Shown here in pieces: positions 3,996 through 56,262 of a stretch of 64,000 bases of DNA (positions are counted from its first letter, which is position 1; each line of letters opens with the position of its first letter). Made by a program: the position numbers and the translations under genes. The DNA is from an uncultured beta proteobacterium. GTDB taxonomy: Bacteria; Pseudomonadota; Gammaproteobacteria; Burkholderiales; SG8-39. The notes beneath the pieces are model-generated. The model was not told the DNA's origin. It made no database searches and was given only the letters and a program-made list of their open reading frames with translations. The stretch covers positions 987,304-1,051,303 of the forward strand of contig CAWEPV010000013.1 of NCBI GenBank assembly GCA_963811085.1, given 5' to 3'.

Positions 3996-4388
3996 TCAGC
4001 AGTCGGAAGTCATGTGCACCACGCCCTCTACGCCTCCCGAAAGCGCCTTCTCGACCGCCGCGGCGAGCGGTTCGTTGCGATAGGTGAGGGCGCGGATCAG
4101 CATCGGCAGATTGACTCCCGAGAGGCCTTCGACGCGCCCCTTCTTGAGCAGACGCATGGCGATGTTGCACGGCGTGGCGCCGTAGATGTCGGTCAGCACC
4201 AGTACGCCGTCGCCGCCGTCGAGTTCGCGCGCGAACTCGCGCGCGAGCGGCAGGATCGCCTCGGGGTCGTCGTGCACCGTGACGCCGACCTGGCGCACGC
4301 GCAGCGGCCGCTTGCCCAGGACGTGGCTCGCGGCGTGGATGAGCGACTCGCCGAGCGCGCCGTGCGAGATGATCAGGATGCCGATCAA
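3996..4388 (-). CDS. PTS EIIA component, mannose/fructose family (regulatory; no permease nearby)
   Basis: Translation from the TTG at 4388 reads LIGILIISHGALGESLIHAASHVLG...GVLVLTDIYGATPCN, a Man-family EIIA fold. The TTGA start/stop overlaps gshB. The six-frame track merges it into the artefactual ORF 3996..5036. Confidence 0.75.
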   Translation of the reverse strand: MIGILIISHGALGESLIHAASHVLGKRPLRVRQVGVTVHDDPEAILPLAREFARELDGGDGVLVLTDIYGATPCNIAMRLLKKGRVEGLSGVNLPMLIRALTYRNEPLAAAVEKALSGGVEGVVHMTSDC

Positions 4389-44189: not shown

Positions 44190-44936
44190 ATGGGCGAATC
44201 CCTGGACGGAAAGGTGGCGCTGGTCACCGGCGGCGCGAAGCGCGTCGGCGAGGCGATCGTGCGCCGGCTGCACGCCGCGGGCGCGCGAGTGGCGCTGCAC
44301 TACCGCGAATCGGAGGCCGACGCGGCGCGGCTCGAGGCCGAGCTGTCGGCGCTGCGCCCGGGCAGCGCGGCCCGCGTGCGGCGCGACCTGCTCGAACCGA
44401 ACGCCGCCGAGGCGCTGGTGGCGGCGGCGGTGGAGCGCTTCGGGCGGCTCGACCTGGTGGTAAACAACGCCTCGATCTTCTACCCCGGCGGGATAGGCAG
44501 GATCGAGCCGCGGCACTGGGACGAGCTCGTGGGCTCGAACCTGCGTGCGCCGCTGTTCGTTTCGCAGGCGGCGGCGCCGCACCTGAAGCAGGCGCGCGGC
44601 GCGATCGTCAATATCACCGATATCCATGCCGAGCGCCCGCTGAAGGGCTTTCCGGTCTACAGCGTCGCCAAGGCCGGGCTGGCGGCGCTCACCCGCTCGC
44701 TCGCTCTCGAGTTGGCGCCGGAGGTGCGGGTCAACGCGGTCGCACCGGGCGCCATCGCCTGGCCGGAGGAGGGCAAGTTCGACCACGCTGAGCGAGAGCG
44801 CATTGTCGCCACCACTCCGCTCAAGCGGATCGGCAGCCCGGACGACATCGCCCAGGCGGTGCATTTCCTCGCTACGGCGCTGTTCGTGACCGGCCAGACG
44901 GTGGCGGTCGACGGCGGGCGCTCGGTATTCCTGTGA
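44190..44936 (+). CDS. Pteridine reductase / SDR-family oxidoreductase (PTR1/FolM-like)
   Basis: 248 aa; [15 protein letters not shown] TGxxxRxG motif and YSVAKAGL catalytic Y-x3-K. Confidence 0.75.
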
Positions 44937-45796
44937 CCGACCCGCGCAAAGCGAAGTACGAAGGCAACAAGCTCGCCAAGCGCCTGCGCCGCCAGGCGGG
45001 CGAGGCGATCGCCGACTTCGGCATGATCGAGGCGGGCGACCGGATCATGGTGTGCCTGTCGGGCGGCAAGGACAGCTACGGGCTGCTCGACGTGCTGCTC
45101 GCGCTGCGCGACAAGGCGCCGGTCGAGTTTGAACTGGTGGCGGTCAACCTGGACCAGAAGCAGCCCGGGTTTCCGGCGCGCGTGCTGCCCGAGTACCTGG
45201 CGGCGCGCGGCGTACCGTTCCGGATCGTCGAGCAGGACACCTACTCGGTGGTGAAGCGGCTGATCCCGGAGGGCCGCACGATGTGCTCGCTGTGCTCGCG
45301 GCTGCGGCGCGGCGCGCTGTATCGCGTGGCCGGTGAACTCGGCGCGACCAAGATCGCGCTCGGCCACCACCGCGACGACATCCTCGCAACTTTCTTTCTC
45401 AACCTGTTCTACGGCGGCAAGCTCAAGGCCATGCCGGCCAAGCTCGTTTCCGACGACGGGCGCCACGTCGTCATCCGGCCGCTGGCTTATGTCAGGGAAG
45501 ACGACCTCGCCGCCCACGCTGTCGCGCAGGACTTTCCGATAATTCCCTGTGTCCTGTGCGGCTCGCAGGAAAACCTGCAGCGGAAAGTCGTCCGCGGCAT
45601 GCTTTCCGAGTGGGAACAACGCTATCCGGGGCGCGTTGAATCCATTCTGCGCGCGCTGTCCGACGTGCGCCCTTCGCATCTTCTGGATCGCAAGCTGTTC
45701 GACTTCGTCGGACTGCGGGCTAAAGGAATCGCCGATCCTGACGGCGACACTGCTTTCGATCCGCAGTCACTCGAGCCGCTATTCAGCGACGCCTGA
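44933..45796 (+). CDS. ttcA: tRNA 2-thiocytidine(32) synthetase
   Basis: 287 aa; PP-loop CLSGGKDS and the CxxC cluster cysteines of TtcA. Confidence 0.9.
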
Positions 45797-46009
45797 GACC
45801 GACATTCTGTAGGCTGCGAGAACTTGATCTAGCGCAAGGCAGTGACTAGTTCACGCGGCGTACTTGATCGCGCGTGTTATAGATTGCAAAAAAAGGCAGG
45901 TTAGCCGCTACAAGGCCTTGACGAGCTGCGGATTGAAAGGACGCGGCACGGTGATCGGTGATATGCGGCGGGCGCTCAATTGTTCTCAATCGACAGAGGG
46001 AGGTTGCAA

Positions 46010-46783
46010 ATGAAAGTGCACTATGGGGTGGACGTCGTCAACGATAGTCCTGTGCTGCGGCCGGTCGCGGTGCAGGTGCCCGATGAAACGGCTGCGGTCG
46101 AGCAGCTCCCGTTCACGGTAACGATCGCGCGCAGCGACGAGCAGCTGCGCAAGGCCGTGACGATGCGGCACGCGGCCTATGCGCGCCACGTGCCCGCGTT
46201 CGCAGAACGCATGAAGGTCCCGGAACGCTGCGACCTGGAGGACGGCGTGGTGGTCCTGCTGGCGGAATCCAAGCTCGACGGCTCTCCCCTGGGAACGATG
46301 CGCATCGAGACCAACCGCTACCGGCCGCTCGCGCTCGAGCAGTCGGTGGAGCTGCCCGACTGGCTGCAGGGCTGCAGCCTTGCCGGGGCGAGCCGGTTGG
46401 GAGTGGGTTTGGGTCGGATCGGACGCGTGGTGAAGACCGCGCTGTTCAAGGCGTATTTTTCCTATTGCGAGCAGATCGACATCGACTGGATGGTGATCGC
46501 AGCGAGAGCGCCCCTGGACCGGCAGTACGAGGCACTCTTGTTCCGGGATGTCTTCCCGGAACAGGGGTTCATTCCGCTAAGCCACGCGAGCAACATCCCA
46601 CACCGGGTCTTGGCGTTCGAGGTGGAAACCGCGGAAGAACGCTGGTCTGACGCCCATCACCCGCTGTTCAATTTCTTTCGCCGCACTCATCATCCGGATC
46701 TCGATTTGGCACGTGAAACACCCTTCTACGATGCTGTCATGCGGCCCGGAATGCCGGTCTACAGCGCGGAAGGCGCGCAGTGA
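46010..46783 (+). CDS. GNAT-fold N-acyltransferase of the autoinducer-synthase-like / N-acyl amino acid synthase type
   Basis: ATG at 46010 preceded by AGAGGGAGG. 257 aa resembling the exosortase-associated N-acyl amino acid synthase / LuxI-like family (the call is by family recall and is not verified). Confidence 0.55.
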   Translation: MKVHYGVDVVNDSPVLRPVAVQVPDETAAVEQLPFTVTIARSDEQLRKAVTMRHAAYARHVPAFAERMKVPERCDLEDGVVVLLAESKLDGSPLGTMRIETNRYRPLALEQSVELPDWLQGCSLAGASRLGVGLGRIGRVVKTALFKAYFSYCEQIDIDWMVIAARAPLDRQYEALLFRDVFPEQGFIPLSHASNIPHRVLAFEVETAEERWSDAHHPLFNFFRRTHHPDLDLARETPFYDAVMRPGMPVYSAEGAQ

Positions 46784-46883
46784 GGTAGGCAGGGCGACGC
46801 GCGCCCGGTGCGCGCCGCCTAACGAAGATGTAGCTGCCGTGCCATCCATCACGGTCATTAGCCATGCACACGGATAGAATGCG

Positions 46884-49800
46884 TTGTGGTGGCAAAGAGG
46901 GGTGGCCGTGGGACCGGCGGGTGGCAGCGCAGTAAACTGGAGCAATCGCGCGCAAGCGGCGCTCGAGGCGTTTCTCTACGGCTTCGGCGTCTACGTGATA
47001 CCCGCGGCCATCGGCCTCGTCACGCTCGTCGCGTTTGCGGTCTGGAAGCCTCAGTACGAATTGGCCGGCGCCACGCCGGTGAACATCAGCGTGCTGCGGC
47101 AGGACGCTGCCGGGCTCGAGCCTGCTCAAGCGCTGCAAGCGCTGCGCGATGCCGCTGCGGTGCCGTATCGCGACACGCACCGATCCGAGGCGCCGTTCTG
47201 GTTCAGTTTCGAGGCTTCCCCAAGCAACGGCGATGAGCCCGCTGAAGTCGAGCTTCCGTCACGGCATGCCGTCGAGGCCACCTGCTGGGATGCCGGCAAC
47301 CTGAAGCGTCTCGGCAGCGCCAGTCGCGCCGAGTCCTCGGGCCGAATGAAGATGGTAAAGGCAGGGTTTGCGCTGCGGCTTGGCCAGCTCCAGTCGGCGA
47401 CCAAGATATTGTGTCGTTCGACGTTTTCCGGCCCGGCGCGGATTTCTGTCGTGCAGTGGCCGGAGGATCAGCTTGAAGCTTCGGCTCAGCGGTTTACTCG
47501 CGATTCCGGCGTGCTTGAGGGCGGCCTATTGATGCTCAGCGCATTCGTCCTCGTGACCGCACTCATCAACCGCGAATGGTTGTACGTGCTGTTCGCGGCG
47601 TGGCTCTTCGTGGCTCTGCGAATGGCGGCAATTTCGGCCGGCTGGGATACGAATTGGTTCGATCGGGTGGTGCCGGCAGACTGGATCTTCTTGCTGCGCA
47701 AACTGGCCGCGGCCGTCTCCTACACACTCACCTTGGTCTTGTTCAGCCGGCTCTTCGCGGAAGACCTTAGGCGGGTGGGCTATTCGCTCCTGCTTCGTAT
47801 CTTGCAATGGTCGTGTCCGCCGCTGCTGCTGGCTGCATTCGCGCTTCCTTTCGCGCAATGGCTTCCCTTTCTGTGGCTGTCGACAGCGTTCGGCATTGCC
47901 GGGCTCGTGTTCTTCCTGGTGCGCATCCTCCTGGTCACGCGCTCCAGGGTCGCCATGTGGTACAGCGCCTCGCTGGCAATCACGCTTTCGGCGAGCTTGT
48001 ACGAGGTCGTCGCCGCAGCACTGGGCGTGAAGGAGCTGATCGGCACGGTGAACAGCGTCACGGCTGCGCTTTCCTCGAGTTTGATGGTGGCGCTGGCCAT
48101 CGCCGAACATATGCGCGAGGAGCACCAGCAGCGAGTGAAGGTGGAAGCCGAGCTGCGCGACACCTACGAAGCGATCCCGATCGGGCTGTTCACGCTCGAT
48201 CGCAACGGTCTTTTCGAGCGCGTCAACCCGGCGCTGACGCAGATGCTCGGCGTTGATCTTTCGCGCGGTCGGCGCGAACACTGGAGCGACCATTTCGAGC
48301 ACGGCGCCTGGCGCAGGCTGCAGGAAGTCGCTCGGCGCGGCGCGGCGCAGGAGATGGAGATCGCCGGCTACGCGGGCGAAAGCGGCGAATCCAAGCGCTT
48401 CCTGGTCAAGGCGAGCCTTAGCGCGGACAAGGTCGAGGGCTCGCTGCAGGACGTCACCGAGAAGTCGAAAGCGGACGAACAGCTGCGCTTCCTCGCCGAC
48501 CATGATCCACTGACCGGCGTGCTCAACCGGCGCGGGATAGAGGCCTTGCTGGAGCGCGCGGTCGCGCAGCTCGGCGAGTCGCACCCCGTGGCGCTCGCCT
48601 ATCTCGACCTCGACCGCTTCAAGCTGATCAACGATCTGTTCGGACACCTCGCGGGCGACGAAGTGCTGCGCCAGGTCTGTCGCCGGGTGCGCGAGCTGCT
48701 GCCCGAAAACCACCACGTAGGGCGCGTCGGGGGCGACGAGTTCGTCGTGGTGTTCGACCGCAGCACGGTCGACGAGGCGGCGGCGCTATGCCGCCGGATC
48801 ATCGACCGGATCGAGACCTCGAGTTATCAGACGGGCGACAAGGCGTTCCAGGTGAAGGGCTCGATCGGCCTGATCGAGCTGGCCGACGGCGTACTGGTGA
48901 AAGACGCCATTTACATGGCCGACCGCGCCTGCCGTGCGGCGAAAAGGCGCAGCGGCGACGGGCTGGTGACCTACGACAAGACCGCACCCGAATTCGGCGA
49001 GCGCGCGCGGGAGTTGCGCCTGGTCGAACACCTGGGCGCCGGAGTGGTGCCGGACGGGCTGTTTCTGGTCATGCAGCCGATCATGTCGCTCCGCGAGCCG
49101 TACCAGTCGCACAATTTCGAGGTGCTGCTGCGCTTGCGCGAAACCGACGGCAGCATCACGCCGGCCGGCAAGATCATCGAGGCGGCAGAGAACAACGGCC
49201 GCGCGGCGGTGATCGACCGCTGGGTCCTGCTGCAGACACTGGAGTGGCTCGAGCAGCATCTTGCCCGGCTGTCCAACACGCGCTTCGTGTGCATGAACCT
49301 GAGCGGCGCGTCGCTGAACGACGAGAAGTTCACGCACGACGCGTTCTCTATGCTGGCGCGCCACCGGCGCGGCGCGCAGCGCCTGTGCATCGAGATCACC
49401 GAAAGCGTCGCGCTGCAGGACATGGAGACCACTCGCCGCTTCATCGACACGGTGCGCGGATTCGGCGCGAAAATCGCGCTGGACGATTTCGGCGCCGGCT
49501 ACACGTCGTTCTCCTACCTAAAGGAGCTGCCGGCGGACGCGGTCAAAATCGACGGCAGCTTCGTCACCGCGATCACCACCCATCCGGCTAATTTGTCTAT
49601 CGTCGAGGCGATCGTCGAGCTGGCGCGCAATCTCGGCATGCAGAGCATCGCCGAATGGGCCGAGGACCGCGCGACGGTCGAGGCGCTATGGCGTGTCGGG
49701 GTCGACTACGTCCAGGGCTACGCCATTTCGCGGCCGCTCGACCCCGCCGCGATCCTGGGCGCGGACTGCTCGCCAAGTTTCATTCAGGATCCTGACGTCG

Positions 49801-49889
49801 CGCAATTCGTGCGCGGGGCGCTCGCGCCCGCGCGCAGCCTCGAATTGTGGGACCCGCTCGACGACCCGTCCTCGATAGGGCTACATTAG
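46884..49889 (+). CDS. 7TMR-DISM (DISMED2 + 7TM) - PAS - GGDEF - EAL membrane sensor (c-di-GMP turnover)
   Basis: 1001 aa: N-terminal TM plus extracytoplasmic domain, seven hydrophobic helices, PAS, a GGDEF domain with RVGGDEF, and an EAL domain with ...[15 protein letters not shown]. Confidence 0.85.
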
Positions 49890-49905: not shown

Positions 49906-50739
49906 TTGCGCGCGATGAAGAGGACGGTCCTCGAGCTGAGGCAGTCGAAGGGCGGGCGCCTGGTGATGCTTACCGCCTATGATTTCCCCGGCGCCAGGCT
50001 CGCGTCGGAGGCCGGCGTGGACCTTATCCTGGTGGGCGATTCGCTCGGCATGGTGGTGCTGGGCTACGAATCGACCGTGCCGGTGACCATGGAAGACATG
50101 TTGCACCACGCCAAGGCCGCGCGGCGCGGCGCGCCCGACACCTTCCTCGTCGCCGACATGCCGTTCATGTCCTACGCGAGCGGCGAGCAGGCGCTCGCAA
50201 ATGCCGCGCGCCTGATGAAGGAGGCGGGGGCCGATTCGGTCAAGCTCGAGGGCGGCCTGGACGCCGTGCCAGCGGCCGAGGCGTTGGTGCGGGCGGGTGT
50301 TCCGGTGCTGGGACACATCGGCCTGACCCCGCAGACGGCGTCGGCGCTGGGCGGCTACAAACTTCAGGGCCGCGACGAGGCCGGCGCCCGCCGGCTGCTC
50401 GAGGAGGCCTCCGCGCTCGAGCGGGCGGGCTGCTGGGGCGTGGTGCTCGAGATGGTTCCGGCGCCGCTCGCGCGCGCGATCACGCAGTCGATCGGGGTGC
50501 CCACCATCGGCATCGGCGCCGGCCCCGACTGCGACGGCCAGGTGCTGGTGTTCCACGACCTGGTCGGCCTGTTCTCCGGCTTTGCGCCGAAATTCGCCAA
50601 GCGCTACGCGGAAGCGGGCGCGCTGATCCGCGAGGCGATCGCGCGTTACGCAGCCGAAGTGCGCGCCGGCACTTTTCCCGACGCGGCGCACAGCTTCGGC
50701 ATGAGCGACGAGGTGCTGAAGCGGGTCTATGGCGGCTGA
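49906..50739 (+). CDS. panB: 3-Methyl-2-oxobutanoate hydroxymethyltransferase
   Basis: 277 aa; [33 protein letters not shown] signature. Confidence 0.9.
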
Positions 50740-52528
50740 GCGCCGCGCAGGCGAGGCGCTCGCGCTGCTGCGCCGGACCTTCGGCCACACGGAATTCCGC
50801 GGCGCGCAGGAAGACATCGTCGCGCACCTCGCCGCCGGCGGCGACGCGCTGGTGCTGATGCCGACCGGCGGCGGCAAGTCGCTTTGCTACCAGGTGCCCT
50901 CGCTGCTTCGCCCTGGCACCGGGGTCGTGGTTTCGCCGCTCATCGCCCTGATGCAGGACCAGGTGGCGGCGCTCAGGCAGCTGGGGGTGCGCGCGGCGTT
51001 CCTCAACTCGACCCAGGATGCGGCTGCGGCGCGAGAGGTCGAGCGCGCGCTGGTCGCAGGCGAGCTCGACTTGCTGTACGTCGCACCCGAGCGAGCGCTC
51101 ACGCCGCGCTGCCTCGAGCTGCTCGGGCGCAGCCGCATCGCCCTGTTCGCGATCGACGAGGCACACTGCGTGTCGCAGTGGGGGCACGATTTCCGTCCCG
51201 AGTACCTGCAGCTCTCGCTGCTGCACGAGCGCTTCCCGCAAGTCCCGCGCATCGCGCTCACCGCCACTGCCGACCCGCAGACGCGCGCCGAGATCGTCGC
51301 GCGCCTCGCGCTCGGGCAGGCACGGGTTTTCGTGTCGAGCTTCGACCGGCCCAATATTCGCTACGCAATCGTCGACAAGGTCGATCCGCGCGCGCAGCTG
51401 CTGGCGTTCATCCGCGAGGAGCACCCGGGCGAGGCCGGCATCGTGTACTGTCTCTCGCGGCGCAAGGTGGATGAGACCGCGGCCTGGCTCGCGACCCAGG
51501 GCCTTGCCGCGCTGCCCTATCACGCGGGCATGGCGGCCTCCGCGCGCACCGAGCACCAGGCGCGCTTCCAGCGCGAGGACGGAATCATCATGGTGGCGAC
51601 GATCGCCTTCGGCATGGGGATCGACAAGCCCGACGTGCGCTTCGTCGCCCACCTCGATCTGCCCAAGAGCATCGAGGGCTATTACCAGGAGACCGGGCGC
51701 GCCGGCCGCGACGGGCTGCCCGCGGACGCCTGGATGGCCTACGGCCTGGCCGATGTGGTGCAGCAGCGCCGGCTGATCGACCTGTCGGAGGCGAGCGAGG
51801 ACTACAAGCGGGTCTCCGGCGCCAAGCTCGACTCGCTGCTCGGGCTGTGCGAGACCGCCGGCTGCCGCCGGGTGCGCCTCTTGGCCTACTTCGGCGAGAC
51901 GAGCGGGCCCTGCGGCAACTGCGACACTTGCCTCGAACCGCCGCAGACCTGGGACGCGACCGACGCCGCGCGAAAGGCGCTGTCGGCGATCTACCGCACC
52001 GGACAGCGCTTCGGCGCGGTGCATCTGATCGACGTGCTGCGCGGCAAGCGCAACGAGCGCGTCGAACGCTGGGGGCACGAGGCGCTGGGCGTGTTTGGCG
52101 TCGGCGCGGAGCTCGACGAAGCAGCCTGGCGCAGCGTATTCCGGCAGCTCGTCGCCCTCGGCCTGGCGCGGGTCGACCACGACGCCCACGGCGCGCTCAG
52201 GCTGACCGAGGCGAGCCGGGCAGTGCTCAAGGGCGAGCAGGCGGTGCAGATGCGGCGCGTGGTGCCGCGCGCGGTGCGCCGCCCCCGCCGCGCCGCGCCG
52301 AGCGACGTCGCCCCGGCCGACGCGGGGCTGCTGCAGGTGCTCAAGGCCTGGCGGCGCGATGAAGCGCGCAGCCAGGGCGTGCCGGCGTACGTGATCCTGC
52401 ACGACAGCACCCTGGCCGAGATCGCCCGCGCGCGGCCGCGCGACCTCACCGCGCTCGCCGGCCTGGGTGGCATCGGCGCGAAGAAGCTCGAGCGCTACGG
52501 CGACGCGCTGCTGCACTTGATCAACTAG
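50729..52528 (+). CDS. recQ: ATP-dependent DNA helicase RecQ
   Basis: 599 aa; [23 protein letters not shown] Walker A, DEAH box, RQC and HRDC regions. Confidence 0.9.
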
Positions 52529-52560: not shown

Positions 52561-52578
52561 TTGGTTCAGGTAGAAGCC

Positions 52579-52839
52579 ATGAACTGCGCGGAGCAACTCG
52601 TCGTCCTATTCGGTAGCCAGGCCGACGTCGCGCGCGCATTCCAACTCGATCGCGCGGTGGTCAACAACTGGGTCAAGTCGGGCTACGTCCCGGCGCGCTG
52701 GGCGACAGAGGTCGAACGCGTGACCCAGGGCCGCATCACCGCGGTCGAAATCCTTACCGAGGCGAGCGCCAAGAAGCCGGTGCGCGTGAAATCGCGCCCC
52801 GACGACGCATCGTTCGGCATCCTGTCGGAGACTGAGCCC
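52579..52839 (+). CDS. Cro/CI-type HTH module (YdaS/DUF1019-like) reading through, without a stop codon, into the downstream aminotransferase frame
   Basis: MNCAEQLVVLFGSQADVARAFQLDRAVVNNWVKSGYVPARWATEVERVTQGRITAVEIL matches the YdaS-type Cro-like pattern (GSQ..LA..LGV...V..W...G.IP..R...IE..T.G). No in-frame stop was found before the ATG at 52840. Confidence 0.45.
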
Positions 52840-54079
52840 ATGAATACCTACGCACCGTCCAAGCGCATCCATTCGTTCCATCCGCCGCAGCGCACGCTGA
52901 TGGGCCCGGGGCCGACCGAGATTCACCCGCGCGTGCTCACCACCATGAGCCAGCCGGCGATCGGCTACCTCGACCCGATCTTCGTCGAGATGATGGAGGA
53001 GCTGAAGTCGCTGCTGCGCTACGTCTACCAGACCAAGAACCCGCTTACCTTCCCGATCTCGGGCCCGGGCTCGGTCGGGATGGAGTACTGCTTCGTCAAC
53101 CTGGTCGCGCCGGGAGACAAGGTGATCGTGTGCATCAACGGCGTGTTCGGCGGCCGCATGCTCGAGAACGTCATCCGCTGCGGCGGCGTTCCGGTGGTGG
53201 TCGAGGACAGGTGGGGCGAACCGGTCGATCCGCACAAGGTCGAGGATGCGCTGAAGAAGAACAAGGACGCCAAGATCGTCGCCTTCGTGCACGCCGAGAC
53301 CTCGACCGGCTGCCAGTCGGACGCGCAGGAGATCGCCCAGTGTCGCGCACAAGCACGGCGCGCTGGTCATCGTCGACGCGGTCACCTCGCTCGGCGGCAC
53401 GCCGGTGCGGGTCGACGAGTGGGAAATCGACGCGATCTATTCGGCCAGCCAGAAATGCCTGTCGTGCACGCCCGGCCTGTCGCCGGTGTCGTTCTCCGAG
53501 CGCGTGGTCGAACGCGTCAAGGCGCGCAAGGACAAGATCCACAGCTGGTTCATGGACATGAATTTGCTGCTGGGCTACTGGGGCGCCACCACCCGCACCT
53601 ACCACCACACAGCGCCCACCAATTCGCTGTTCGCGCTGCACGAGGCGCTGCTGCTGATCCGCGAGGAGGGGCTCGAGAACAGCTGGGCGCGCCACCACCG
53701 CCACCACGTCGCGCTCAAGTCGGGGCTCGAGGCGATGGGGCTGAAATTCCTGGTCAAAGAGGAATACCAGCTGCCGCAGATGAACGCGGTGCTGTGCCCG
53801 GAGGGCGTGAACGAGGCCGACGTGAGGAAGACCCTGCTGGGCGAATTCGGCATCGAGATCGGCGCCGGGCTCGGGCCGCTCGCGGGCAAGATCTGGCGCT
53901 TCGGCCTGATGGGCTACTCGTGCCGGCCGGACAACGTGATGCTGTGCCTGTCGGCGCTAGGCTCGGTGCTCGAGGACATGGGCCTGCCGGTGCACGTCGG
54001 CGACGCGGAAGCCGCGGCGCACGGCGCCTACGCCAGAATGCACGCGAGCGACGCGCAGCGCAAGAAACGCGCCGCCTGA
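52840..54079 (+). pseudogene. Alanine-glyoxylate / serine-pyruvate aminotransferase (class V, AGXT-like), disrupted by a frameshift near 53340-53350
   Basis: The N-part in frame 1 (MNTYAPSKRIHSFHPPQRTLMGPGPTEIHPRVL...HAETSTGCQSDAQEIAQ) and the C-part in frame 2 (HKHGALVIVDAVTSLGGTPVRVDEWEIDAIYSASQKCL...) each align along AGXT. The junction lies at cagtgtcgcgcacaagcacggc. Confidence 0.8.
54010..54078 (+). repeat. Copy A of a ~70-bp imperfect direct repeat (last 22 codons of the aminotransferase)
   Basis: gccgcggcgcacggcgcctacgccagaatgcacgcgagcgacgcgcagcgcaagaaacgcgccgcc recurs at 60325-60395 with a few substitutions (both encode AAHGAYA.MHASDAQRKKRAA). Confidence 0.6.
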
Positions 54080-54083
54080 GGGC

Positions 54084-54260
54084 CTAAAGCCCCGGGCGCT
54101 GCCAGATGGTGCTCGTCGGGCCGGCCTGGTTGAGCGTGTAGAAGTGCAGCCCGGTGCGCCGCCGCTGAGCAGGCGGTCGCACAGCTCGGTGACGACGTCG
54201 AGGCCGAAGGCGCGCATCGATGCGCTGTCGTCGCGGAAGCTCTCGAGCTTGAAGCGCATC
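54084..54260 (-). pseudogene. metF: 3'-terminal fragment of a methylenetetrahydrofolate reductase (metF) gene, itself frameshifted
   Basis: Minus-strand pieces IPRWMRFKLESFRDDSASMRAFGLDVVTELCDRLLSGG and GLHFYTLNQAGPTSTIWQRPGL* match the MetF C-terminus (IPAWM...; DFHFYTLNRAE...GL*). No upstream MetF body is present. Confidence 0.7.
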
Positions 54261-54366
54261 CAGCGCGGGATCTCGGCGCCGCGGGCGCGCTGGAGTCGTG
54301 CACGTCAATGCAGTACAGTGTCTGCCGTCTCGGGCGACACATCGGGCCGGATAAGCGCCAGCAAGC

Positions 54367-56262
54367 ATGACCGAAGACGGCTATCCTGACGCGCTGCCGC
54401 GCGGGTACCACCTGCACTGGTACCTGCTCGAGCGGGTGCTGGGGCAGGGCGGCTTCGGCATCACCTATCTGGCGCGCGACACCAACCTCGATCAGCGCGT
54501 CGCGATCAAGGAATATCTCCCGATCGACGTCGCCACGCGCCGCAACGACGCGACCGTGCGCGCGCGCACCGAGGCGCACGACGAGCGCTACCGCTGGGGG
54601 CTCGAGAGGTTCATCCGCGAGGCCCGCACGCTGGCGCGCTTCGACCACCCAAATGTCGTGCGCGTGCTCTCGGTGTTCGAGTTCAACAACACCGCCTACA
54701 TGGTGATGCGCTTCGAGGAGGGCAGCAACCTCGCCACCATCCTCGAGCAGCGCGGCACGCTGCCGGAAGGCGAGTTGCTGCGCATCCTGCTGCCGATCCT
54801 CGACGGGCTCGAGCTGGTGCACAACGCGGGGTTCATCCACCGCGACATCAAGCCGGACAACATCCACGTGCGCGCCGACGGTAGCCCGGTACTGCTCGAT
54901 TTTGGCTCCGCGCGCCAGCCCGTGGGCCATTCGCCCAGCTTGACCATCCTGGTCGCCCCCGGCTACGCGCCGTTCGAGCAGTACTACAGCAGCGGCGAGA
55001 GCCAGGGTCCGTGGAGCGACATATACGGGCTTGGGGCGACTTGCTACCGCGCCATCTGCGGCACGCCGCCGATGGACGCGATCGCACGCAGCAAGGGCGT
55101 CCTCGGCAGCGCGCGCGACGTGCTGGCGCCCGCAACCGCGGTCGGCGCGGGACGCTATTCGCCGCGCCTGCTCAAGGCGATCGATCACGCGCTCGAATTT
55201 ACCGAGCGCGATCGCCCGCAGAGCATCGCCGAATGGCGTCGGGAGCTGCTCGGCGAAGGGCAGCAGGCCGCGCTGGCGCCAGCCGCGCCGTCCGCGGCCG
55301 CGGCGCGCAGCGAGCGGCCAGCCCCCGCCTCCGGCGGAGGCTGGCCGGTTTTCCGTACGGTCCTGGCTGCGGCGGTGGCGCTCGTCGTGGTGGCCGTGCT
55401 GCTGCGTTTCTATCCGTTCTCGGGCGGTGGCAAGAGCGGGCCGCCGCCCGAGACCGCGCCCGATCCTGCAGCGCAGCTCAAGGAACGACTCGCTAAGGTC
55501 GAGCAGCAGCTCGCCGAGGAGCGGCAGCGGCAGGCCGAGGCGCTCGCGCAGCAGCAGGCGGAGGAGCGCCAGCGCGTGGAGGCGGAGCGCAAGCGCGCAT
55601 TCGAGGCCGAAGCCGCGCGTAAACGCGAGGCGGAGCAAAAGAAGCTTGCCGAGGAGCGCCAGCGCAAGCTCGCGCAGCAGGCGGAGGCCGAGCGCAAGCG
55701 CCAGGCGGAGCAAAAGAAGCATGCCGAGGAGCGCCAGCGCAAGCTCGCGCAGCAGGCGGAGGCCGAGCGCAAACGGGCTGAGCAGCAGGCTCGCCAGCAG
55801 GCAGTCCAAAGCGCGAAGCCAGCCGCAGCGCCTCCGAGCTCGGCCGCGCTGCTGGAGAAGGCCGACCGCGACTACACCGCCGGCAACTACGCCGAAGCGC
55901 TTGCGGCGCTCAAGCCGCTGGCCGCGCGCGGCAACGCCAACGCCCAGCTCAGGCTCGGCAAGTCCTACGCGGAGGGGCACGGCGTTGCGCACGACGACGC
56001 GCGCGCGGCGATCTGGTATCGGAAGGCCGCGTTGCAGGGCAACCCGGAGGCGCAGTTGCAGCTCGGCGAGCTGTACGCGAGCGGGCGCGGCGTGCCGCAT
56101 AGCGATTTCGAGGCTTATGTGTGGTTGACCGCTGCGGTCCGCGGCGGCAACGCGGCGGCCAAGGCGCTGCAGGGGCGTGTCGCGAAGTTGCTGCAGCCTG
56201 TCGAAGCCGAGCAAGCGGGCAAGCTGGTGACCAATCTGCCGCTCCCCGACGCCGCCAAGTAA
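54367..56262 (+). CDS. Ser/Thr protein kinase with a single TM, a coiled-coil repeat region and C-terminal Sel1/TPR-like repeats
   Basis: Hanks kinase motifs GQGGFGITYLA, VAIKEY, HRDIKPDNI, DFGSA and APGYAPFEQ. TM segment VLAAAVALVVVAVLL. Repeats AEERQRKLAQQAEAERKR. Sel1-like region YRKAALQGNPEAQLQLGELYASGRGV. Confidence 0.85.
   Translation: MTEDGYPDALPRGYHLHWYLLERVLGQGGFGITYLARDTNLDQRVAIKEYLPIDVATRRNDATVRARTEAHDERYRWGLERFIREARTLARFDHPNVVRVLSVFEFNNTAYMVMRFEEGSNLATILEQRGTLPEGELLRILLPILDGLELVHNAGFIHRDIKPDNIHVRADGSPVLLDFGSARQPVGHSPSLTILVAPGYAPFEQYYSSGESQGPWSDIYGLGATCYRAICGTPPMDAIARSKGVLGSARDVLAPATAVGAGRYSPRLLKAIDHALEFTERDRPQSIAEWRRELLGEGQQAALAPAAPSAAAARSERPAPASGGGWPVFRTVLAAAVALVVVAVLLRFYPFSGGGKSGPPPETAPDPAAQLKERLAKVEQQLAEERQRQAEALAQQQAEERQRVEAERKRAFEAEAARKREAEQKKLAEERQRKLAQQAEAERKRQAEQKKHAEERQRKLAQQAEAERKRAEQQARQQAVQSAKPAAAPPSSAALLEKADRDYTAGNYAEALAALKPLAARGNANAQLRLGKSYAEGHGVAHDDARAAIWYRKAALQGNPEAQLQLGELYASGRGVPHSDFEAYVWLTAAVRGGNAAAKALQGRVAKLLQPVEAEQAGKLVTNLPLPDAAK
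55631..55780 (+). repeat. Two tandem 75-bp coding repeats (~96% identical) inside the kinase gene
   Basis: gcggagcaaaagaagc(t/a)tgccgaggagcgccagcgcaagctcgcgcagcaggcggaggccgagcgcaa... occurs twice back to back, giving AEQKK(L/H)AEERQRKLAQQAEAERKR twice. Confidence 0.8.

Follow-up and report, generated by a model that had tools for sequence, protein, structure and literature searches.

Do an acyltransferase and a membrane receptor that are encoded side by side in a betaproteobacterial genome form a signalling circuit of their own? The question is raised by a stretch of 64,000 nucleotides from an uncultured beta proteobacterium (assembly GCA_963811085.1, contig CAWEPV010000013.1, forward strand, positions 987,304 to 1,051,303), which is called the window below. 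On its plus strand, gene A (46010-46783; 257 aa, ATG start) encodes a predicted FeeM-like acyltransferase of GNAT fold, with a core at residues ~30-235, and gene B (46908-49889) encodes a predicted 993-aa receptor of the 7TMR-DISM class with PAS, GGDEF and EAL domains. An original prediction, made from the letters alone, had placed the acyltransferase gene directly before the receptor gene, and the open reading frames (ORFs), 46010-46783 and then 46884-49889, bear this out. The model we propose, in which A would be the synthase and B the receptor of a self-contained two-gene signalling module, is built on sequences and structure predictions, and we regard it as evenly poised between right and wrong.

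Results

The two genes are kept together

Relatives of A occur in 514 species genomes (one genome per species was scanned), and the neighbourhoods were counted in the best 80 loci. Far from being dispersed, which would have told against the original prediction, the two genes stand together in 76 of these 80 species-level loci despite a varied context and orientation: a full-length B orthologue, possessing all five segments, adjoins A in tandem in 72 of them and convergently in 4. Two of the other four loci end at contig edges, and the last two, L040 and L047, contain no B within 7 kb. A search starting from homologues of B led to A as the next-door gene in 3 of 3 loci, one of them with a divergent arrangement. 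Among the Betaproteobacteria, the adjacency extends over four or more orders or families, three orientations and identities of A down to ~57%, and the genera that carry the pair include Rhodoferax, Sulfuritalea, Pandoraea, Paucimonas, Variovorax, Hydrogenophaga, Acidovorax, Noviherbaspirillum, Pigmentiphaga and Polaromonas.

The genes ttcA and panB, between which A and B lie on the same strand in the window, flank the pair in close relatives only, and the flanking genes otherwise vary. In L026 (4846-10756), ttcA and panB are adjacent to each other and the pair is found downstream of both. Judged from these gene orders, the pair looks like a relocatable unit. The clustering of the neighbouring ORFs revealed no third partner gene (acyl carrier protein (ACP), transporter or regulator), no cluster of neighbours being present in more than 9 of 54 loci. 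A and B constitute a strict module of two genes, which move together.

The idea that A is coupled to the sensor module of B whatever the output of that module was rejected, the kinase paralogues P0129, P0138 and P0141 having no A neighbour where their context is visible. In one locus (L083:2058-9571), a histidine-kinase paralogue of the B sensor (49% identical over 439 aa) is accompanied by a LuxR-type response regulator, and the locus continues with an HlyD-like protein, an ABC exporter with a C39 peptidase, a 45-aa ORF and an Rce1-like protease; from its gene content, the locus resembles a cluster for peptide export or of bacteriocin type, and no FeeM-like gene is present in it. In L047 (Paraherbaspirillum soli, L047:6893-10703), A is followed by a convergent gene for a transporter of the major facilitator superfamily and by a membrane-fusion gene of the HlyD type, which together may provide a route of efflux.

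The product of gene A as a FeeM-like acyltransferase

The A protein of the window gives no Pfam or NCBIfam match, even at E<=10, and the 7TM assignment of B is sub-threshold, so that homologues and structure prediction were needed to confirm both. The homologues of A are numerous, 3084 being retrieved at E<=1e-3 from a 90% cluster database, many of them pre-annotated PF21926 (FeeM), and the family comprises 747 clusters in a 50% representative library. The hidden Markov model (HMM) PF21926 is matched by 26 of 30 aligned family members (best E 1.6e-8), and Autoind_synth (PF00765) by none of the 30, nor by the window protein. TIGR03694 is approached below threshold by 7 of 36 members (best E 0.007) and not matched by the window protein, and the OlsB model is approached, again below threshold, by 4 of 36 (best 1e-4). 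No exosortase gene was found in the flanking ORFs scanned (~40.3-56.3 kb) or as a recurrent neighbour. Membership of A in the LuxI (Autoind_synth), TIGR03694 or OlsB families was rejected on these HMM scores, all of which lie below the family cut-offs. The original prediction had envisaged Autoind_synth, TIGR03694 or a FeeM-like protein; the first two assignments fall, and the third holds for the family, through its PF21926 matches and a fold closest to FeeM, and not for the HMM score of the window protein itself.

A comparison of the profile of A with PDB chains at the sequence level yielded spurious matches only and did not reach FeeM. The AlphaFold model of A, whose predicted local distance difference test (pLDDT) score is 80 overall and above 87 at residues 30-235, has a GNAT fold, and Foldseek retrieved FeeM (2G0B) as its best match (E 1.4e-8, TM-score 0.74-0.78). 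FeeM and the N-acyl homoserine lactone (AHL) synthases are the closest folds, and the likeness of A to LuxI-type enzymes is limited to the fold level. Homologues and predicted model together place A in a distinct, compact subfamily of FeeM-like acyltransferases, which is neither LuxI nor TIGR03694.

The positions conserved in an alignment of 271 members of the family are D75, R98, E110, position 126, R129, K147, R166, Y173, H198, H217, H228 and D230. An E-x-[ST]-R motif on the predicted strand β4, with the same spacing as E101 to R104 of LasI, is part of the set of conserved charged residues (D75, R98, E126 and R129). In a published comparison, LasI E101-L-S-R104 is listed beside FeeM Glu94-Gln97 (PMC9654057), and the equivalent Glu (Glu103) is essential in Nas354 (PMC4897644). 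Position 126 is occupied by Glu in 232 of the 271 sequences (86%). In the window (codon 46385-46387) and throughout its clade (P0001-P0016, identity of 76% or more), this position is Gly, and the motif E-A-T-R reads G-A-S-R in the window copy. E86 was considered as the catalytic Glu and rejected, since it is invariant in close relatives (LLAESK) but replaced by R, Q or T in distant members. The ratio of non-synonymous to synonymous substitutions (dN/dS) of A in the window clade, ~0.2, denotes purifying selection; judged from its sequence, the window copy may be catalytically altered, but it is not decaying. With a Gly at the presumed catalytic Glu, it may be slower, use another base or have turned into a non-catalytic partner.

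The family possesses a specific C-terminal extension (~205-235) with the near-invariant H217, H228 and D230, which FeeM (188 aa, 171 of them aligned) is too short to reach. This extension might bind a metal, receive the acceptor or serve as a surface of contact. The near-invariant residues H198, H217, H228 and D230 all fall within residues 198-230 of A (window 46601-46699).

The product of gene B as a 7TMR-DISM receptor

The mechanical ORF of gene B runs from a TTG at 46884 to 49889 (1001 codons). This TTG is not kept in relatives; a GTG/TTG at 46908 and an AGAGGGG-type ribosome-binding site upstream of it are. The start of B is probably GTG 46908, which is preceded by AGAGGGG and gives the 993-aa protein. 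Residue numbers are nevertheless counted here from TTG 46884. The protein comprises a first transmembrane (TM) helix (~16-53), a DISMED2-like β-sandwich (64-193), seven TM helices (194-430), a PAS domain (424-494), a GGDEF domain (538-689) and an EAL domain (725-951).

Pfam recognises PAS_8, GGDEF (1e-33) and EAL (2e-57) in B. The 7TMR-DISM_7TM model (PF07695) scores 17-19 bits on the window protein, below its gathering score of 29; among the homologues of the N-terminal 439 residues, the majority carry this domain. When residues 1-439 were modelled by AlphaFold (pLDDT 86), the first TM helix, the β-sandwich and the seven helices were apparent. The β-sandwich, modelled with a pLDDT of 85-97, has no match to Pfam DISMED and is superimposable on the periplasmic domain of RetS (3JYB/2XBZ; TM-score 0.68-0.70, E 5e-4). 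Domain matches, the PF07695 of the homologues and the predicted structure thus agree with the 7TMR-DISM receptor joined to GGDEF-EAL that had originally been predicted, and they identify B as a genuine member of this receptor class.

The catalytic motifs of B are intact: GGDEF at residue 616 is followed by EVL, NLSG, EITES, DDFGAGY, KIDG, AEWAED and QGY, and the motifs GGDEF, EVL, N, ExxE, DDFGAGY, KIDG, AEW.ED and QG[YF] are kept in ~60 of 66 B orthologues. No RxxD I-site is present. The closest solved output module is that of RbdA/PA0861 (7e-79). The mean identity to the window protein is 62% in the 7TM bundle versus 46% in the periplasmic domain, a weak hint that the better-kept bundle may be the conserved ligand site.

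The best formal Foldseek matches of the B sensor model (46884-48200) in the PDB are complexes of human Wntless (WLS; 7KC4 and 8TZR), with TM-scores of 0.2-0.26. WLS consists, like B, of one TM helix, a β-sandwich and a 7-TM bundle, which in WLS holds lipid; the resemblance is topological at most.

A sister branch with another membrane sensor

A metagenome scan seeded with five distant members of the family (33-46% identical to A) returned 48 loci. In six of them, A is 61-67% identical and B is adjacent; the loci of the distant branch contain no B. A convergent hybrid histidine kinase (HisKA-HATPase_c-REC) lies directly downstream of A in 30 of 33 informative loci of this branch (sister-branch loci L089-L122, L125, L132 and L133; example L106:4992-7592). 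The N-terminus of the kinase consists of 4-6 hydrophobic TM helices without a periplasmic domain, and NCBIfam has no specific family that names either partner of the sister branch. By analogy, this sensor resembles the receptors of lipophilic autoinducers. Two unrelated membrane-embedded sensors beside one enzyme family favour, as far as gene order can tell, a synthase and a receptor communicating by a hydrophobic signal.

Leader, spacer and candidate promoters

The 213 bp between ttcA and gene A, which are the leader and promoter region of A (45797-46009, plus strand, G+C ~0.55), had attracted attention by their low G+C and their direct repeats. The first feature is real, the G+C measuring 0.54-0.56 in the leader, 0.69-0.75 in the upstream flank and 0.59-0.69 in genes A and B, but it has no special meaning because the same dip is found in 78 related loci, where the 200 bp upstream of the A homologues have a mean G+C of 0.53 versus 0.63 for the locus. 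A drop of this kind is normal between the genes of a high-G+C genome.

The repeats are likewise present, ACTTGATC occurring at 45822-45829 and at 45862-45869 on the plus strand, and they lose their significance once the window is aligned with eight relatives of 74-92% identity in A. The first copy belongs to a conserved block, TTGAyy..CGCAA (45824-45837), that the window shares with L003-L010. The second shows no such conservation and probably arose by chance; its position reads ATTGATC in L003, ATCGATC in L004 and is unrelated in L006-L009. The word is found five times in the window (4383, 6999, 45822, 45862 and 52515) versus 0.68 expected, a count reached in 0 of 100 shuffles, and the copies at 4383, 6999 and 52515 are in coding sequence without common flanks. 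ACTTGATC was rejected as an operator, given the loss of the second copy and the coding location of the others without shared flanks.

What is kept among close relatives in the leader is a GTGA-N5/6-TCAC palindrome, an extended -10-like element, a CTTGACG block and the ribosome-binding site, whose sequence AGGGAGG precedes ATG 46010. The palindrome, GTGACTAGTTCAC (45842-45854, plus strand), is a candidate CRP/FNR-type operator. The -10-like element, TGTTATAGA (45875-45883, plus strand, with TATAGA at 45878), lies inside the conserved block GTGTTATAGATTGCAAAAAA and would serve as promoter; the start site that it implies is ~42 bp downstream of the centre of GTGACTAGTTCAC. A GTGA-N5/6-TCAC box is present in 10 of 79 upstream regions versus 0.74 in shuffles, nine of the ten belonging to the window and its close relatives and one to another locus.

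In the spacer between A and B, a G+C-rich hairpin without T-run (46793-46819, plus strand) directly follows the stop codon of A. It is conserved, a stem mismatch of the window being a perfect pair in relatives, and it may act as a partial terminator or an RNA-stability element. Further downstream, the palindrome CCGTG-N8-CACGG (46837-46854, plus strand), which contains GTGC-N6-TCAC and is kept in L003-L007, is a putative regulatory site whose centre lies ~41.5 bp before the start that TAGAAT (46875-46880) implies; the two elements possibly constitute a promoter proper to gene B. The -41.5/-42 geometry and the local conservation suggest two separately driven promoters for A and B, with CRP/FNR-like activation of class II geometry. 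The GTG.-N5/6-TCAC boxes of both genes are conserved in close relatives only.

A k-mer enrichment over 70 distant upstream regions gave lineage-specific words only and no family-wide leader motif. An Rfam scan of 45600-47100, which covers the leader and the A-B spacer, detected no riboswitch or known RNA at E<=1. A strict scan of the intergenic regions found neither a consensus sigma-70 promoter nor an intrinsic terminator, and the sole terminator-like match of the terminator scan is inside gene A.

Neighbouring genes

The upstream neighbour of the pair is ttcA (44933-45796, plus strand), which encodes the tRNA 2-thiocytidine synthetase (NCBIfam TtcA, 1.6e-139), and the downstream neighbour is panB (49906-50739, plus strand). 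The other ORFs around the pair, over the ~40.3-56.3 kb scanned, encode an alpha/beta hydrolase, a glutathione S-transferase, a short-chain dehydrogenase/reductase, RecQ, a Cro/YdaS-like protein and a Ser/Thr kinase. The recQ gene is at 50729-52528; it is followed, at 52561-56262, by a 508-aa ORF with an N-terminal Cro/YdaS-like helix-turn-helix and then by a 631-aa Ser/Thr protein kinase with Sel1 repeats.

Discussion

The model stands on firm ground in three respects: the fold and family to which A belongs, the architecture of B together with its intact catalytic motifs, and the persistence of the two genes side by side. The reading of A and B as synthase and receptor is backed by the fold, the family and the very strong conservation of the pair, and strengthened by the pairing seen in the sister branch. 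In this model, A would be a cytoplasmic enzyme of the FeeM type that joins a fatty acyl group, taken from acyl-ACP or acyl-coenzyme A, to an amino acid or a similar amine, thereby generating a lipid-like amide. This hydrophobic product would partition into the membrane or cross it and would be perceived by B, most likely in the 7-TM bundle or, alternatively, in the RetS-like periplasmic domain or the PAS domain. The binding of the ligand would shift the balance of the RbdA-like GGDEF-EAL output, towards either synthesis or hydrolysis, and set the level of cyclic di-GMP (c-di-GMP), resulting in an autocrine or quorum-type input to biofilm formation and motility.

Several observations weigh against this model. 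The clade of the window has a Gly at the position of the presumed catalytic Glu of the family, and the equation of that position with FeeM Glu95 was deduced from strand order and motif spacing, not from a residue-level superposition. The window protein itself misses the FeeM model PF21926. A stands without B within 7 kb in L040 and L047, and no gene for an ACP, a transporter or exporter, or a hydrolase accompanies the pair in the 54 loci compared. The B-type sensor module is also carried by HisKA_3 histidine kinases associated with LuxR-type regulators, without an A neighbour where the context is visible. The known 7TMR-DISMED2 domains are tied to the sensing of carbohydrates or calcium, not of lipids. 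Finally, each gene seems to be driven by a promoter of its own, in which case co-expression is not required.

The direction of the relationship might also be the reverse, B sensing an external cue by means of its periplasmic or 7TM module and A, as a lipid or biosurfactant synthase, being the output regulated, in activity or expression, by the local c-di-GMP pool of B or by contact with B. We hold this to be unlikely, without the probability being negligible. Nas343 and Nas354 offer a precedent: these synthases of the FeeM type are fused to PilZ, a receptor domain for c-di-GMP, and a control of the synthase activity by c-di-GMP has been proposed by the authors (PMC4897644). The C-terminal extension of A, with H217, H228 and D230, could be a regulatory or contact surface, and the similar GTG.-N6-TCAC box found ~41.5 bp upstream of the -10-like element at both genes would fit a common control by the CRP family. 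Some factors of this family bind c-di-GMP. However, A carries no PilZ or other recognised c-di-GMP-binding domain, and the existence in the sister branch of a kinase partner, whose output is phosphotransfer, argues against a c-di-GMP-specific explanation: an enzyme regulated by c-di-GMP does not cover both branches. A somewhat smaller probability is attached to the view that A modifies membrane lipids, as does OlsB, which acts in the synthesis of ornithine lipids, or that it acylates B itself or some other part of the envelope, B then monitoring or requiring this state of the membrane; in the lineage of the window, A may be reduced to a non-catalytic accessory subunit. The sub-threshold matches to OlsB (4 of 36, best 1e-4) and TIGR03694 (7 of 36) point that way, as do the dominance of membrane-embedded helices in both partner sensors and the combination of Gly126 with a dN/dS of ~0.2 in the window clade, which would be that of a conserved, possibly non-catalytic protein. 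Against it, all the OlsB and TIGR03694 scores are far under the family cut-offs, neither a second, OlsA-like acyltransferase nor an exosortase is recurrently encoded beside the pair, and the closest folds, FeeM and the AHL synthases, are those of enzymes making signals or small lipids.

It is very improbable, in our judgement, that the adjacency is purely historical and that two functionally uncoupled genes travel as a small island. The G+C of the pair (0.59-0.69 versus 0.69-0.75 in the flanks), its position between ttcA and panB in one lineage only, as if inserted there, and the seemingly separate promoters of A and B are compatible with such an island. It accounts poorly for an adjacency that is kept across at least four orders or families, in three orientations and down to ~57% identity of A, with no other gene retained beside the pair, and for a sister branch that repeats the logic of an enzyme and a membrane sensor with a different sensor.

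To return to A as synthase and B as receptor, the closest functional analogues are RpfF-RpfR and then the LuxM-LuxN and CqsA-CqsS pairs. In the betaproteobacterium Burkholderia cenocepacia, the RpfF-RpfR system of the Burkholderia diffusible signal factor (BDSF) associates the gene of a lipid-signal synthase with that of a PAS-GGDEF-EAL receptor that alters c-di-GMP. RpfF has a crotonase fold and produces a cis-2-enoic acid, and RpfR is a cytoplasmic protein that binds the signal in its PAS domain. The logic proposed for A and B is the same, but A is a GNAT and B an 8-TM protein of the 7TMR-DISM class. In LuxM-LuxN, CqsA-CqsS and LqsA-LqsS, the synthase gene lies beside that of a polytopic membrane receptor which binds a hydrophobic autoinducer in its TM bundle; the synthases are of the LuxM/AinS type or the pyridoxal-phosphate-dependent CqsA type, and the output of the LuxN/CqsS/LqsS-type systems is a phosphorelay, not GGDEF-EAL. 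The architecture of these receptors is that of the 4-6-TM hybrid histidine kinase of the sister branch.

FeeM and the other N-acyl amino acid synthases (NAS) share with the A family the PF21926 domain, matched by most members, and the Glu on β4, which would correspond to FeeM Glu95. FeeM differs from A by an identity of 13-17%, by the ~30-residue N-terminal tail and the His/Asp-rich C-terminal extension of A, and by its dedicated ACP gene feeL, which has no counterpart in the A-B pair; in the clade of the window, the Glu is in addition replaced by Gly. A link between NAS enzymes and c-di-GMP has been hinted at only by the Nas-PilZ fusions (PMC4897644). For B, the closest sensors are RetS, LadS and NicD of Pseudomonas aeruginosa, and the closest output module is that of RbdA (PA0861); the first two sensors are kinases and NicD carries GGDEF alone, unlike the PAS-GGDEF-EAL module of B. 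To our knowledge, none of RetS, LadS and NicD has a dedicated gene for the synthesis of its ligand next door. Full-text literature searches returned no paper on a FeeM-like/NAS gene paired with a GGDEF/EAL or 7TMR-DISM protein, in keeping with the original prediction that the pair had not been characterised.

In conclusion, our observations point to A and B as a synthase-receptor signalling pair which would combine a new class of enzyme, a new class of receptor and a direct c-di-GMP output. More tentatively, and with a probability that we place below even, the A family as a whole might be a new class of lipid-amide autoinducer synthases, widespread in Betaproteobacteria and read by two types of dedicated receptor, the 7TMR-DISM GGDEF-EAL protein, which would connect the signalling of cells to one another or to themselves directly to c-di-GMP, and the 4-6-TM hybrid kinase. 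7TMR-DISM receptors are common, and ligands are known for almost none of them; N-acyl amino acid synthases abound in metagenomes of soil and water, and their native role is unclear. The carriers of the pair are environmental and wastewater Betaproteobacteria, some of them cultured, which makes the idea directly testable, and the pairing with a kinase in the sister branch provides a built-in comparative control. Could the product of A be the first cognate ligand of a 7TMR-DISM receptor bound through its 7-TM bundle? If so, this gene pair would give a 7TMR-DISM sensor a defined candidate source of its ligand and a bacterial lipid amide a physiological role, the control of biofilm and motility through c-di-GMP.

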